Below, piece by piece: positions 6,072 to 60,281 of a DNA stretch of 64,000 nt. How positions within the stretch are numbered: the first letter of the stretch is position 1; the number at the start of each line of letters is the position of its first letter. The stretch is from an uncultured Clostridia bacterium (GTDB lineage Bacteria; Bacillota; Clostridia; TANB77; CAG-508), in contig CAKPRQ010000002.1 in assembly GCA_934182605.1 (NCBI GenBank), positions 44,361 through 108,360 of the forward strand, in the 5' to 3' direction. A program made the translations under genes and the position numbers. The notes beneath the pieces are model-generated. The model had not been told where the DNA came from. It made no database searches and was given only the letters and a program-made list of their open reading frames with translations.

Positions 6072-6218
6072 ACAGTTCAGTAACTATTTTATAAAATCGT
6101 GATATATAGCTATTTTTAGTCAAAACATATCTAGGGCGACACAATCATGGTCTTGACTCACAAATAGCTATATATCACGATTTTACTAAAACTATATGTT
6201 CCCTTACTGAATTGTAAC
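6072..6218. repeat. Nested-palindromic intergenic repeat, copy A (subfamily 1; arms AAATCGTGATATATAGCTATTT; core in 'reverse' orientation)
   Basis: Outer termini ACAGTTCAGTAA / TTACTGAATTGTAAC. 22-nt arms pair perfectly. The inner stem is TAGTCAAAAC/GTCTTGACTA. The loop is ATATCTAGGGCGACACAATCATG. Confidence 0.75.
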
Positions 6219-6335
6219 ACTTTTTAATTTAATTATCAAATAATTATATACAATAAAAAAAATTTGTGATATACTTTAATATATTTGAATAAATTAACCT
6301 AAAATAATGTATAATAAAAAGAAAGGAGTAATTTT

Positions 6336-7736
6336 ATGGATTCAAAAGAATTGAAAGAAAAATTATTTATGAAAAAGAAAAATGGTTGGGAAACTGTTTC
6401 AGAAGAAGAAAAAAAAGAAATTTATGCCTTTTCTAAAGAATATATAGATTTCTTAAATAAATCAAAAATAGAAAGAGAAGTTGTGGAATTTTCAATTAAT
6501 GCTTTAGAAGAAAAAGGATTTAAAGATATTAATACAGTAAATGAATTATCTACTGGTGATAAGGTTTACTATGTAAACAGAGAAAAAACTGTTTATATAG
6601 CTGTAATTGGTGAAGAAAGTATGGAAAATGGTTTAAATATAGTAGGTGCACACGTTGATTCACCTAGATTAGATTTAAAACCAAATCCTTTATATGAAAC
6701 TGATGGATTAGCATTATTTAGAACACATTACTATGGTGGAATTAAAAAATACCAATGGACTACAATTCCTCTTGCTTTACATGGTGTTATTGTGAAAACT
6801 AATGGTGAAAAAATCAAAATAAATATTGGCGAAGATGATAATGAGCCTGTATTTGTTGTAAGTGATTTATTACCACATTTAGCCCAAACTCAAATGGAAA
6901 AGAAATTAAAAGAAGGTATTGATGGCGAAAGTTTAAATATTTTAATTGGAAATATACCTTATGATAATAGTGAAACACCTGAAAGAGTTAAATTAAATAT
7001 TTTAAATATTTTGAATCAAAAATATGGAATAATTGAAAAAGATTTTTTAAGTGCTGAAATTGAGGTTGTACCAGCTTTTAAAGCTAAATCTTTAGGTTTC
7101 GATGAAAGTATGGTAGCTGGTTATGGTCAAGATGATAAAGTTTGTGCTTATGTAGCTTTACAAGCTATTTTAAATACAGAAAATCCTAAAAAAACAGCAA
7201 TATGTATTTTAGCAGATAAAGAAGAAATTGGTAGTATGGGAAATACTGGTATGGAATCTCACGTTTTTGATATGTTTGTTACAGAATTGTTATTTAAAAC
7301 AAAACAAAACAGCATAAATGCAATAGATAGAGTATTTTGTAAATCAAAAATGTTATCCGCTGATGTAGATGCAGCTTATGACCCGTTATATGCTAGTGTA
7401 TATGAAAAAACAAATTCTGCTTTCTTAGGTGAAGGTGTAGGATTAAATAAGTATACTGGAGCTAGAGGAAAATCTGGTGCTTCTGATGCAAATGCAGAGT
7501 TTGTGGCTGAAATTAGAAAATTATTTGAAGATAATAATATAAGATATAATATATCAGAACTTGGAAAAGTAGACCAAGGCGGTGGCGGAACAATTGCCTA
7601 TATTTTAGCTAATAAAGGAATGGACGTTATAGATTGTGGTGTTCCAGTACTATCTATGCACTCTCCTTATGAAGTAACAAGTAAGTTTGATATTTATAGT
7701 ATTTTTAGAGCTTATACAGCTTTTATGAATAATTAG
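6336..7736 (+). CDS. M18-family aminopeptidase (aminopeptidase I / ApeA-like)
   Basis: 466 aa with M18 motifs (GAHVDSPRLDLKPNP; metal-ligand His/Asp/Glu pattern; C-terminal GGGGTIAYI...SMHSP). Confidence 0.75.
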   Translation: MDSKELKEKLFMKKKNGWETVSEEEKKEIYAFSKEYIDFLNKSKIEREVVEFSINALEEKGFKDINTVNELSTGDKVYYVNREKTVYIAVIGEESMENGLNIVGAHVDSPRLDLKPNPLYETDGLALFRTHYYGGIKKYQWTTIPLALHGVIVKTNGEKIKINIGEDDNEPVFVVSDLLPHLAQTQMEKKLKEGIDGESLNILIGNIPYDNSETPERVKLNILNILNQKYGIIEKDFLSAEIEVVPAFKAKSLGFDESMVAGYGQDDKVCAYVALQAILNTENPKKTAICILADKEEIGSMGNTGMESHVFDMFVTELLFKTKQNSINAIDRVFCKSKMLSADVDAAYDPLYASVYEKTNSAFLGEGVGLNKYTGARGKSGASDANAEFVAEIRKLFEDNNIRYNISELGKVDQGGGGTIAYILANKGMDVIDCGVPVLSMHSPYEVTSKFDIYSIFRAYTAFMNN

Positions 7737-7754
7737 AAATTATTAAGTCCGTAA

Positions 7755-7786
7755 AAAATAGCTATATATCAAGTTTTATAAAATAA
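7755..7786. repeat. solo half-arm remnant of the repeat family (AAAAATAGCTATATATCAAGTTTTATAAAAT)
   Basis: Matches the right arm plus outer flank (AAATAGCTATATATCACGATTTTATAAA) of subfamily-1 copies. There is no core and no partner arm. Confidence 0.35.
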
Positions 7787-7812
7787 TTTTTGAACTTAAT
7801 TTTAAGAAAATA

Positions 7813-7848
7813 TAAAAAAGAGTAGGATATTTATTATCTTACTCTTTT
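7813..7848. terminator. bidirectional terminator between the aminopeptidase gene and rpmB
   Basis: Hairpin AAGAGTAGGATA-ttta-TTATCTTACTCTT with T-runs on both strands. Confidence 0.5.
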
Positions 7849-7849
7849 A

Positions 7850-8047
7850 TTACACTCTTTCTACTTTTCCAGAACGTAAACATTTAGCACATACTTTTAT
7901 TTTTTTAGGTTGACCATTTACCATAGTTTTTACACTTCTTAAATTTGGTTTAAATGTTCTAGTTGCTCTTTTACTTATATGAGAACGAGTTATGCTAAGT
8001 TTATTTCCAAAACTTACTTCTTTATCACAAATTGCACATTTTGCCAT
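7850..8047 (-). CDS. rpmB: 50S ribosomal protein L28
   Basis: 65 aa: MAKCAICDK...RSHISKRATRTFKPNL...KVCAKCLRSGKVERV. This is the L28 zinc-ribbon pattern. Confidence 0.9.
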   Translation of the reverse strand: MAKCAICDKEVSFGNKLSITRSHISKRATRTFKPNLRSVKTMVNGQPKKIKVCAKCLRSGKVERV

Positions 8048-8137
8048 TGCTATAAGGCACCTCCTAGTTTAAATTTAAATTGACTATTTATTAGTTTAAC
8101 ATATTTTTTAGAAAAATACAAGTATTTCACTAAATAA

Positions 8138-58304: not shown

Positions 58305-58391
58305 TTTTTTACCTCCCTTGGTATTTACGAATTCTTTTGAAATTCTCCCAAAATTTTTTATTTATAATAATTTTTAATTATTACCTTTATA

Positions 58392-58826
58392 CTATTCAGC
58401 TATTACAACGCCCATTGAACGTGCTGTTCCTTTAACCATGTTCATAGCTGTTTCTAATGATGCTGCATTTAAATCTGGCATCTTTTGTTCTGCTATCGCT
58501 TTTACTTGTTCCATAGTTAATGTAGCTACTTTATCTCTATTAGGTTTTCCTGAACCTTTTTCAATTTTTGCAGCTTTTTTTATTAATACTGCCATTGGTG
58601 GCACTTTTGTAATAAATTCAAATGATTTATCTTGATATACAGTTATAACAACTGGTATAATAAATCCAGCTTGACTCGCTGTTCTATCATTAAATTCTTT
58701 TACGAATTGCATAATATTTACACCACTTGAACCTAAAGCTGGTCCTACTGGTGGTGCTGGTGTAGCCTTTCCAGCTTCTATTTGTAATTTAATTATATTT
58801 TTAACTTCTTTTGCCATAATTTTCAC
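58392..58826 (-). CDS. rplK: 50S ribosomal protein L11
   Basis: 144 aa. Motif PPVGPALG. Confidence 0.95.
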
Positions 58827-58836
58827 CTTTCTTTAA

Positions 58837-59367
58837 TTATATTTTTTGAATTTGTGTTAAATCAAATTCAACAGCTGTTTCTCTACCAAACATTGATACT
58901 AGTACTGTTACTTTATTTTTTTCTTTATCAATGTTCTTAACAACCCCTTCAAATCCTTCTAAAGCACCATTTAATATCTTTACATTATCATCTATTGTAT
59001 AATCTATATTAACTGGCACTTCTTCAAATCCCATATTTCTGATTTCTTCATCAGTTAATGGAGTTGGTTCTGTTCCTGCTCCTACAAATCCTGTAACCCC
59101 TCTAGTATTTCTTACAACATACCAAGATTCTTCTGTTACAATCATTTTTATTAGAACATATCCAGGAAAAACTTTTCTTAAATTAGTCTTTCTTTTACCA
59201 TCTTTTATTTCTACTTGTTCTTCCATTGGAACAACTATATCTTCAAAAAAATCTTCTAATTCCCTATTTTTTATAGTTTTTTCTAAATCTGTTTTTACTT
59301 TGTTTTCATACCCAGAGTATGTATGTACTACATACCATCTTGGTTTTACTTCTTCATTTTGAGACAT
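58837..59367 (-). CDS. nusG: transcription termination/antitermination factor NusG
   Basis: 176 aa. NGN domain (WYVVHTYSGYENKV) and a C-terminal KOW motif. Confidence 0.9.
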   Translation of the reverse strand: MSQNEEVKPRWYVVHTYSGYENKVKTDLEKTIKNRELEDFFEDIVVPMEEQVEIKDGKRKTNLRKVFPGYVLIKMIVTEESWYVVRNTRGVTGFVGAGTEPTPLTDEEIRNMGFEEVPVNIDYTIDDNVKILNGALEGFEGVVKNIDKEKNKVTVLVSMFGRETAVEFDLTQIQKI

Positions 59368-59394
59368 GTATAGGCCTCCTTATTTAATAATTAA

Positions 59395-59802
59395 TTATTC
59401 TGCAGTTTCTGAATTTGCAGTATTTTCTACAGCTTCATTATTTTCTGTATTATCTGTTGTAGTATTTTCACCTTCTGAAACTTCATTTTCAAGTGTTGTA
59501 TCGCCATCTTCATTTACTACATTTTGATTTACAGAATTTCCATCTGTTGTTGTATTTTGTGATTCACTTATTTTTGTTCTTATACCATTTACTACATATT
59601 CATTAAAATTGTTAAATGTAAAATCTAGTATAAATACTATAATAGCTGTTATAATAACAATTACAATTACACCTACAGTATTATTTACAACTTGTTTTGT
59701 AGTTGGCCAAGTTACTTTTTTTAATTCTGCTTTAACATCTTTAAAAAACGATTTTTTTTGTTTACTATTTTTATTTTCTTTATTTTTTGTATTATCAGCC
59801 AT
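59395..59802 (-). CDS. secE: preprotein translocase subunit SecE with a ~60-aa acidic N/T-rich C-terminal extension
   Basis: Conserved KELKKVTWPT motif and a single TM helix. It lies between rpmG and nusG. The tail is low complexity: TTTDGNSVNQNVVNEDGDTTLENEVSEGENTTTDNTENNEAVENTANSETAE. Confidence 0.8.
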   Translation of the reverse strand: MADNTKNKENKNSKQKKSFFKDVKAELKKVTWPTTKQVVNNTVGVIVIVIITAIIVFILDFTFNNFNEYVVNGIRTKISESQNTTTDGNSVNQNVVNEDGDTTLENEVSEGENTTTDNTENNEAVENTANSETAE

Positions 59803-59820
59803 TTTTACCCTCCTACAAAA

Positions 59821-59985
59821 TTACTTTGTTTCTTTATGAGCAGTTCTTTTTCCACAGAATTTACAATATTTTACTATTTCTAGTCTTTCTGTATTGTTTT
59901 TCTTGTTCTTTTCTGTCATATAATTTCTTCTTTTACATTCTGTACATTCTAATGTAATTGCTTCTCTTGCACCTTTTGCCGCCAT
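59821..59985 (-). CDS. rpmG: 50S ribosomal protein L33 (absent from the ORF track because it is under 60 aa)
   Basis: Minus-strand translation: [54 protein letters not shown] (54 aa). Cys4 zinc ribbon. It occupies the canonical position upstream of secE. Confidence 0.85.
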
Positions 59986-60140
59986 TTACTACACCTCCGT
60001 TTATTTTTGTAAAACAATAGCCGTAATACTATTATTTATATATATTATTTTAACGATGTGACACATTTTTTACATACTATAATACTTTACCATATTTTTC
60101 TTTTTATGTCAAGTGATTTTAGGGGATTTTTTTAAATTTC

Positions 60141-60281
60141 CGTAACAACTCAGAGGGTATTTGTCTAAAGCTTGGTATATAGCTATTTGTAAGTCAAGAC
60201 CCGGATTGTGTCACCCTATCTATGTTTTGACTAAAAATAGCTATATACCAAGCTTTTTAAAGATTAGGACCTGAGTAGTCA
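60141..60281. repeat. Nested-palindromic intergenic repeat, copy I (subfamily 2; forward-orientation core). It overlaps the 3' end of rsmE.
   Basis: The full length matches copy E in inverted orientation (flanks GTAACAACTCAGAGGGTATTTGTCTAAAGCTTGG...CCAAGCTTTTTAAAGATTAGGACCTGAGTAG). Core GTAAGTCAAGACCCGGATTGTGTCACCCTATCTATGTTTTGACTA. Confidence 0.75.

Follow-up and report, generated by a model that had tools for sequence, protein, structure and literature searches.

We describe here a family of short, hairpin-bearing intergenic repeats in a 64-kb window of DNA (the whole analyzed stretch of contig CAKPRQ010000002.1, 64,000 nt, hereafter the window) from an uncultured Clostridia bacterium. Full-length copies measure 141 to 155 nt, contain no listed open reading frame (ORF) of at least 80 amino acids, and end in terminal inverted repeats (TIRs) of 12 to 14 nt with the form GT(A/T)ACAA(C/T)TCAG(C/T)A; inside the TIRs lie short, poorly palindromic spacers and then a central hairpin module. 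The outer shell is likely a MITE (miniature inverted-repeat transposable element) of the ISBst12 type, moved in trans by a single-ORF IS66-family DDE transposase, and not a relative of the repetitive extragenic palindromes (REPs) or palindrome-associated transposable elements (PATEs). The covariation between the arms of the central hairpin is genuine, and we give about an even chance to the view that it mainly reflects palindrome maintenance at the DNA level followed by amplification of the variants. The family appears undescribed, while its kind is well known; it is unusual chiefly for a central hairpin whose arms change together.

Evidence for mobility

Termini were called blind to the flanking sequence, as GT(A/T)ACAA(C/T)T(C/T)AG and its reverse complement with at most two mismatches each at both ends, which yielded 28 full-length copies. 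Flanking octamers were identical (8/8) in 13 of the 28 copies and matched at 7/8 positions in 4, whereas control pairs, made of one copy's left flank and a different copy's right flank, gave such matches at rates of 0.12% (8/8) and 0.5% (7/8). A 57-nt internally deleted copy also carries a perfect 8-bp target-site duplication (TSD), TACTAATT. The window holds nine copies (A to I), to which a profile search (nhmmer) added three remnants:

Copy A, 6069-6218, minus strand: full-length MITE, 150 nt, core reversed; termini GCTACAGTTCAG...CTGAATTGTAAC; flanking octamers ATTTTTTA / ACTTTTTA (7/8 match)
Remnant, 7754-7795, plus strand: right half of a copy (AAAAATAGCTATATATCAAGTTTTATAAAATAATTTTTGAAC), 18 nt past the aminopeptidase stop codon
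Copy B, 9151-9301, plus strand: full-length MITE, 151 nt; termini GTTACAATTTAG...CTGAATTGTAAC; flanks TTCAAAAT / TTTGAAAT (6/8 match)
Remnant, 9605-9660, plus strand: weak right-half remnant (nhmmer E = 0.32); an intact copy occupies the corresponding sister-species site (L032 5574-5725)
Mini-copy, 28417-28454, plus strand: internally deleted (GTTACAAGCTTTT...AAATCTGTTAC), adjoining copy C; a full copy lies at the same position in the sister species (L001 5501-5618)
Copy C, 28462-28616, plus strand: full-length MITE, 155 nt, of the subfamily with AGTACTT arms; termini GTTACAGTTCAC...GTGAATTGTAAC; orthologous copy in the sister species at L001 5343-5456
Copy D, 37538-37672, plus strand: decayed, with the core deleted, a degenerate left terminus (TTTCTAATTTAG) and two arm mismatches; ends 4 nt from the stop codon of a D-Ala-D-Ala carboxypeptidase gene
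Copy E, 43407-43547, minus strand: full-length MITE, 141 nt
Copy F, 44961-45063, plus strand: AGTACTT-arm hairpin with the outer parts truncated, adjoining copy G
Copy G, 45078-45163, plus strand: hairpin module only (arms ATCTTGATATATAGCTATT, three mismatches, diverged core), without GTWAC termini; ends 18 nt from an M23 peptidase stop codon
Copy H, 49922-50074, plus strand: full-length MITE, 153 nt; right terminus degenerate (GATGAGTTATTAC)
Copy I, 60142-60282, plus strand: full-length MITE, 141 nt, of the subfamily of E; flanks AAATTTCC / AAATTTCA (7/8 match)

The first-pass annotation of this stretch had located the nine lettered copies to within a few bases, and its listing is extended here by the three remnants. 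Its bounds for copy E took in both octamers of a perfect 8-bp TSD, CTGTTCCG (43399-43406 and 43548-43555), and the 8-bp direct duplications around the termini were overlooked in it. Ends of the form GT(A/T)ACAA(C/T)T(C/T)AG are found in copies A, B, C, E, H, and I; the sharing of outer termini by the first and third arm subfamilies, which had been noted earlier, is real but not limited to these, since the termini GTAACTACTTAG / GTAACAACTCAG of E and I are the same as those of the other copies. Copies E and I are 93% complementary over 141 nt.

Comparison with related genomes revealed differences in presence and absence. Orthologous stretches of CALXUC01, a metagenome-assembled genome (MAG) from an uncultured member of the Clostridia, are 82 to 92% identical to the window, and we therefore treat it as a sister species. 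The window species (L050) lacks the copy that lies at locus L006 between octamers ATAATTTT, its TSD, and has a single ATCTTTTT at that position; copy H is absent at the orthologous sister-species site (L016 7542-7555), and the copy L024_373 is absent from L062. Of these three comparisons, L006/L050 alone has a clean single-copy target. Sites B and E were considered as insertions shared with the sister species and rejected, because flanks, TSDs, and positions differ; they represent independent insertions into the same intergenic regions. Together, the TIRs, the 8-bp TSDs, and the presence/absence differences point to a cut- or copy-and-paste element whose transposase makes 8-bp staggered cuts.

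Affinity of the element ends

Ends beginning with GTAA combined with 8-bp duplications suggest the IS66 family of insertion sequences (ISs), and the termini were compared with those of three single-ORF reference elements of this family. For ISDge4, which belongs to the ISBst12 group, the published TIRs are GTGACTACTCAGCA / GTAACTGCTCAGCA; its direct repeat of 8 bp is CCTCGATG, and its transposase has 449 amino acids (PMC12898284). An ISGka4-family element on the Geobacillus plasmid pHTA426 has the ends GTAACTATTCAGCC / GTATCTATTCAGCC, the TSD AACTCGTC, and an ORF matching PF03050 and NF033517, while Bacillus thuringiensis plasmid p142098 carries an IS66-family ORF between perfect 15-nt TIRs (GTAACTACTCAGCTT) with the TSD TCAAATT(G/A). 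MITE termini such as GTAACTACTCAGCA and GTAACAACTCAGCA are identical to these reference ends at 12 to 13 of the first 14 positions. The GTAAC start, the ...CTCAGC motif, and the 8-bp duplication are thus common to both; the reference elements are 1.6 kb and encode a DDE transposase of 450 to 485 amino acids, whereas the elements described here are non-coding and 141 to 155 nt long, with similarity seen only at the termini.

Because the TIRs and 8-bp TSDs match those of IS66-family elements, we infer that the MITEs are moved by a DDE transposase and not by IS200/IS605 TnpA or a RAYT. In this scheme an enzyme of the ISBst12 group (single-ORF IS66 family) would bind the GTAAC...CTCAGC ends of the non-coding copies and insert them with an 8-bp staggered cut, thereby duplicating the target. 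The identity and the location of the gene for this partner transposase are likewise what we infer.

Distribution of the family

The window has a G+C content of 26.9%. A core 14-mer, allowing at most three mismatches, occurs eight times in it against an expectation of 0.9, a count that was reached in 0 of 100 shuffles, and the same family was recovered by independent repeat detection. When a 20-nt degenerate core pattern was scanned over 185,579 species with one genome per species, matches were found in 38 stretches of CALXUC01 (41 exact 20-mer matches) and in two stretches of a second MAG, CANPAC01 (uncultured Clostridium), together with three chance hits; neither MAG is the source of the window. 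A metagenome scan added 23 contigs with the core pattern, two of which are 99% identical to the window and therefore belong to the same species. Profile searches yielded 77 distinct copies in the window and genome loci and 102 hits once the metagenome loci were included, and about 100 copies were assembled in all from the sister-species MAG and the metagenome contigs. Six loci (L052, L059, L066, L009, L023, and L031) were rejected as chance matches to the search patterns.

Among the genomes, metagenomes, plasmids, phages, and viral contigs scanned, the family is restricted to a few uncultured Clostridia of 27% G+C; in a small, AT-rich genome of this lineage it reaches a density of roughly one copy per 5 to 7 kb. 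Rfam gave no hits to the window at gathering thresholds; at E values up to 10, only generic microRNA-precursor and small nucleolar RNA hairpins appeared, far below threshold. A blastn search with copy B found no plasmid match and only short, sub-significant matches in phages (E ≥ 0.1), and viral contigs contained no match to the core pattern. The family, which the first-pass annotation had proposed to be an undescribed, mobile, MITE-like group of intergenic repeats, appears undescribed among the resources compared, ISfinder lying outside the comparison.

Covariation in the central hairpin

The hairpin module, 85 to 90 nt long, has AT-rich arms of 21 to 23 bp, then a small internal loop and an inner stem of 8 bp (GTCAAGAC / GTTTTGAC, one of whose pairs is a conserved G·T), and finally a loop of ~25 nt (CCGGATTGTNNNNCCNNAGCTAT) that is conserved and asymmetric. 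Among 64 distinct sequences, two-sided changes are present at 20 of 34 stem pairs, with 170 two-sided cells where shuffles give 44 ± 5. The covariation score of 0.243 compares with 0.077 for shuffles and 0.03 to 0.05 for slid registers, and the earlier proposal that the stems covary is thus borne out. At pair 10-97, for example, GC occurs 25 times, UA 25 times, and AU 5 times, and at pair 12-95 the counts are 43 for UA, 12 for GC, and 6 for CG. One-sided (G·U-type) changes number 0 to 4 per pair, compared to as many as 31 two-sided changes. The arms are intolerant of mismatches, whereas the outer TIRs tolerate them (comparing the 64-sequence stem alignment with the 28 full-length copies). In the window, mismatches between the arms are absent from A, C, and I, number one in B, E, and H, two in D and F, and three in G, so the first-pass description of each left arm as the exact reverse complement of the right holds for A, C, and I but not for the other six. 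Similarly, the conserved core ascribed to all copies is a real family feature that has been lost from D and has diverged in G.

The rarity of G·T intermediates, the even orientation relative to transcription (28:28; see below), the tolerance of the TIRs compared to the arms, and the similar behavior of an unrelated hairpin family in the same genomes all argue for upkeep of the palindrome at the DNA level and not for a structured RNA. On this view a change in one arm would either disappear or be transferred to its partner through intrastrand templated repair, be it quasipalindrome template switching or hairpin mismatch correction, and the resulting arm variants would spread as copies are amplified and recombine with one another at the core they share. 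Quasipalindrome template-switch mutation, by which one arm is copied onto the other, is well established (PMC7202029). Consistent with a template-switch event, one loop variant carries ...AGCTTGC in place of ...AGCTATG, by which the stretch becomes complementary to GCAAG on the left side. As a test for a strand-specific RNA, the asymmetry between G·T and A·C in the conserved arms came to ~12 distinct events versus 5; it is weak, the folding step biases it, and we do not use it as evidence. The alternative to templated upkeep is selection, either for a hairpin that aids transposition or for a two-way terminator or insulator just past stop codons.

The hairpin repeat unrelated to the MITEs occurs in the window at 11650-11735 (minus strand) and at L016 2630-2730 and L062 6130-6215. 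It has the conserved loop GTTCGCGTAAGCGGAAGGGTG, arms that vary compensatorily between copies (TTTATTTATGG/CCATAAATAAG versus CTTGATTATGG/CCATAATCAAG), and no Rfam hit at the gathering threshold. The covariation of its arms around a conserved loop suggests that some general process is at work on the palindromes of this lineage.

Gene context of the copies

All nine window copies lie between ORFs, as had been reported, with two of them reaching into the adjoining gene: the degenerate terminus of H overlaps the ruvX stop codon (50071-50074), and the 3' end of rsmE, comprising its final ~8 codons and its stop codon (60257-60282), is provided by copy I, an overlap with a gene 3' end that was also recognized earlier. 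The flanking genes are ordinary housekeeping genes, including the divergent rplM and aminopeptidase genes at A and the divergent ppaC and rnj genes at B (both pairs as previously named), ruvX at H, and secE and rsmE at I. The perfect sigma-70-type promoter described beside copy B is indeed present (TTGACA-17 nt-TATAAT, 9316-9344); it lies upstream of rnj, 15 nt from the copy. In the sister species the TTGACA box is kept, and an independent MITE insertion stands ~16 nt further off.

In co-directional intergenic regions, 28 copies are in sense and 28 in antisense orientation. Within such regions 46 of 59 copies are nearer to the upstream stop codon than to the downstream start, with a median distance to that stop of 28 nt and 10 copies overlapping it. 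This closeness to stop codons fits selection against promoter disruption, and equally a terminator or insulator role.

The rnj segment (window 9297-11578 versus L032 3661-6041) is inverted in the sister species relative to the neighboring type II secretion gene; there it is bounded by MITE copies at L032 3528-3633 and 6044-6194, and in the window copy B lies at one end. Around copy F, a 19-nt direct repeat (AATAAATTAAATATATCTT, 44945-44963 and 45064-45082) brackets the copy and extends into the left arm of copy G; since it is longer than an 8-bp transposase duplication would be, it suggests local duplication or slippage.

Three further features of the window were noted. Within a large ORF with no family match (51939-54413, minus strand), positions 52932-53141 hold at least four tandem 42-nt repeats that are 68 to 82% identical. 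A predicted AAA-ATPase/PD-(D/E)XK nuclease gene (33907-35589, minus strand; PF09820 and PF08011) has matching copies at two sister-species loci, L030 and L033, which lie on different contigs. The neighboring FGE-sulfatase-like ORF (36130-37332) is a member of a small paralogous family.

Modules, shells, and hybrids

The same hairpin module is found in several GTWAC-ended outer shells with differing spacers, and, at >95% identity, it occupies the center both of GTWACAAYTCAG-ended elements and of a longer palindromic repeat whose termini are GAGTAAAACTAT. In more distant relatives the module alone is recognizable. A TSD search on hairpin-only copies found no consistent duplication, and many of these "naked" copies bear decayed outer parts of the second palindromic repeat. 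Two hybrids, L038_4795 and L039_4740, have left and right arms from different subfamilies and yet perfect TSDs, and loop variants are common to different arm types; these patterns are most simply explained by recombination at the core that the copies share.

Members of the second palindromic repeat family, with ends GAGTAAAACTAT...ATAGTTTACTC, are ~270 nt long in the sister species and carry the module at their center (for example at L012, L003, L010, and L021). Upstream of a clpB-like gene in the window (433-490) lies an internally deleted repeat of this type without the module. In another strain of the window species, a contig 99% identical to window 58705-60261 (L044) carries at site I an element (1431-1579) with the left arm of copy I and a right arm of the AAATCGTG subfamily, beyond which the contig continues into unrelated, G+C-richer sequence; this hybrid arose either from copies recombining with each other or from chimeric assembly at the repeat. 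Main-type and AGTACTT-arm copies abut without a spacer (...TTGTTAC|GTTATAATTCAC...) on at least two different contigs (L028 7777-7999, L001 5343-5618, and window 28417-28616), which suggests insertion beside existing ends or a composite unit.

Discussion

We interpret these repeats as ISBst12-type MITEs whose central palindrome may be maintained at the DNA level, and several observations weigh against one or the other part of this interpretation. The window copies B, C, and H have poor TSDs. The sequence examined for a transposase amounts to 542 kb of incomplete MAGs and short contigs broken at repeats; in it, no match of the pHTA426 transposase (PF03050) in tblastn and phmmer searches for the IS66 family scored better than E = 0.15, no multicopy ORFs of any kind were found, and the autonomous partner is therefore unproven. 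TIR pairs 0.4 to 4 kb apart with matching flanks were likewise not found in the 542 kb. Given the breaks at repeats, the absence of a partner transposase from this material is uninformative. The module occurs without GTWAC termini and inside the GAGTAAAACTAT...ATAGTTTACTC repeat, so a simple "deletion derivative of one IS" fails as an explanation. The G·T pair of the inner stem is present in 63 of 64 sequences, where pure palindrome correction would have removed it. In the one clear orthologous pair, formed by copy C and L001, differences lie in the loop and the outer parts but at none of the ~62 stem positions, and this identity could also reflect purifying selection on the stem. Finally, most copies were collected by means of the core sequence, so its conservation across species is partly an ascertainment effect. 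Pfam and NCBIfam scans of the unannotated window ORFs found no transposase; together with the IS66 search, this agrees with the earlier statement that the window encodes none.

The module might instead be a unit in its own right (a protein-binding site or a DNA hairpin) that passes among unrelated MITE shells by movement or recombination, the GTWAC-ended, 8-bp-duplicating element being no more than one carrier. Its near-identity in GTWACAAYTCAG- and GAGTAAAACTAT-ended elements, its solitary survival in distant relatives, the arm hybrids with perfect TSDs, and the loop variants common to different arm types would all suit such a unit, but no insertion signature was found for the module by itself, no module-free shell was seen (the short copies derive from deletions and still have a portion of an arm), the hybrids are explained by homologous recombination at the shared core, and distant copies were found via the core, so that their shells may merely have diverged; we consider this explanation quite unlikely. 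A related proposal, which we hold to be possible though doubtful, is that the module is more than the center of a decayed IS and is a selected DNA unit (a protein-binding site, a hairpin, or a cargo that serves as terminator or insulator in both directions) that has been swapped among at least two unrelated MITE shells, its stems kept complementary by selection or by a dedicated step of hairpin-templated copying during transposition. If this were true, the lineage would have a modular palindromic system like that of the bacterial interspersed mosaic elements (BIMEs), but driven by a DDE transposase.

A role as a structured RNA was raised in the first-pass annotation and is disfavored by our data. 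The hairpin could serve as a small or cis-regulatory RNA, or the MITE could carry it as an intrinsic terminator or insulator that works both ways, and the stems would then covary under selection on RNA folding. Copy B folds very stably (-51 kcal/mol, z = -8), the arms are bounded on both sides by A-runs and T-runs (AAAAGCTTG...CAAGCTTTT) that resemble those of a bidirectional terminator, copies cluster just past stop codons, and the stems of C and L001 are conserved where the loop is not. However, the 28:28 orientation relative to transcription excludes a strand-specific RNA signal in the conserved asymmetric loop, intermediates of the G·U type are rare, and no Rfam family matches. The hairpin and its flanking A/T runs are present and copies lie near stop codons; the 30-bp AT-rich stem and 25-nt loop are atypically long for intrinsic terminators, and selection against insertion into promoters would lead just as well to a location past stop codons. 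We therefore regard selection on RNA folding as an improbable explanation of the stems, and the family is probably not a structured RNA.

The weakest explanation, that the family is REP- or PATE-like and that an HUH Y1 transposase (IS200/IS605 TnpA or a RAYT) reads the hairpin as single-stranded DNA and cuts and rejoins alongside it, would account for the long hairpin with its conserved asymmetric loop and compensatory stems, the dense intergenic distribution, and the copies that are a hairpin module alone with no recognizable TIR or TSD, but the TIRs and 8-bp TSDs of the full-length copies are foreign to Y1 transposases, the TIRs agree with those of DDE IS66-family elements, the copies show no orientation bias with respect to gene direction (which stands in for the direction of replication), many "naked" copies carry decayed parts of another repeat, and phmmer searches with IS200 TnpA and RAYT queries found no Y1-like ORF in the incomplete 542-kb sample; we judge it very improbable and, for the full-length copies, largely refuted, and the TnpA or RAYT enzymes named as candidate mobilizers in the first-pass annotation are set aside accordingly.

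IS200/IS605 TnpA and RAYT enzymes make no target duplication and do not need TIRs. The MITEs resemble REP/BIME systems with their RAYTs and IS200/IS605-derived PATEs in being dense intergenic palindromes with compensatory stems between subfamilies and mosaics with other palindromic units. REPs and PATEs depend on a Y1 HUH enzyme and lack TIRs and target duplications, whereas the elements described here have both and come with no sign of a Y1 gene in the 542 kb examined; REPs lie next to a Y1 (RAYT) gene, and PATEs have subterminal hairpins and insert strand-specifically, in contrast to the even orientation found here.

The classical bacterial MITEs that fold into long hairpins include the Correia/NEMIS elements of Neisseria, RUP of Streptococcus pneumoniae, and ERIC. 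Like the present family, these are 100 to 160 nt long with TIRs, a fixed-length TSD, and a high copy number, and they lie in intergenic regions beside genes and include internally deleted and nested copies. Their TIRs and TSDs are those of a different IS family. In the family described here, unlike in these, a near-perfect central module is kept by two-sided changes while the true TIRs are imperfect, and the same module is also found in a second repeat family. A review of such MITEs is available (PMC3184786).

In the literature searched, no earlier description of MITEs from the ISBst12 group was found. The present assignment gives a dense repeat family a concrete, testable identity as MITEs with ISBst12-type ends. 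For annotation, breaks in the assembly of MAGs from this group, and joins that may be chimeric, are explained by these elements. The copies also mark genome change between sister species, in the form of insertions and losses, the inverted rnj segment, and the rewritten 3' ends of rsmE and ruvX. With ~100 related hairpins, 20 stem positions with two-sided changes, and few intermediates, the family constitutes a natural data set on the persistence of palindromes, one that could separate templated palindrome correction from selection.

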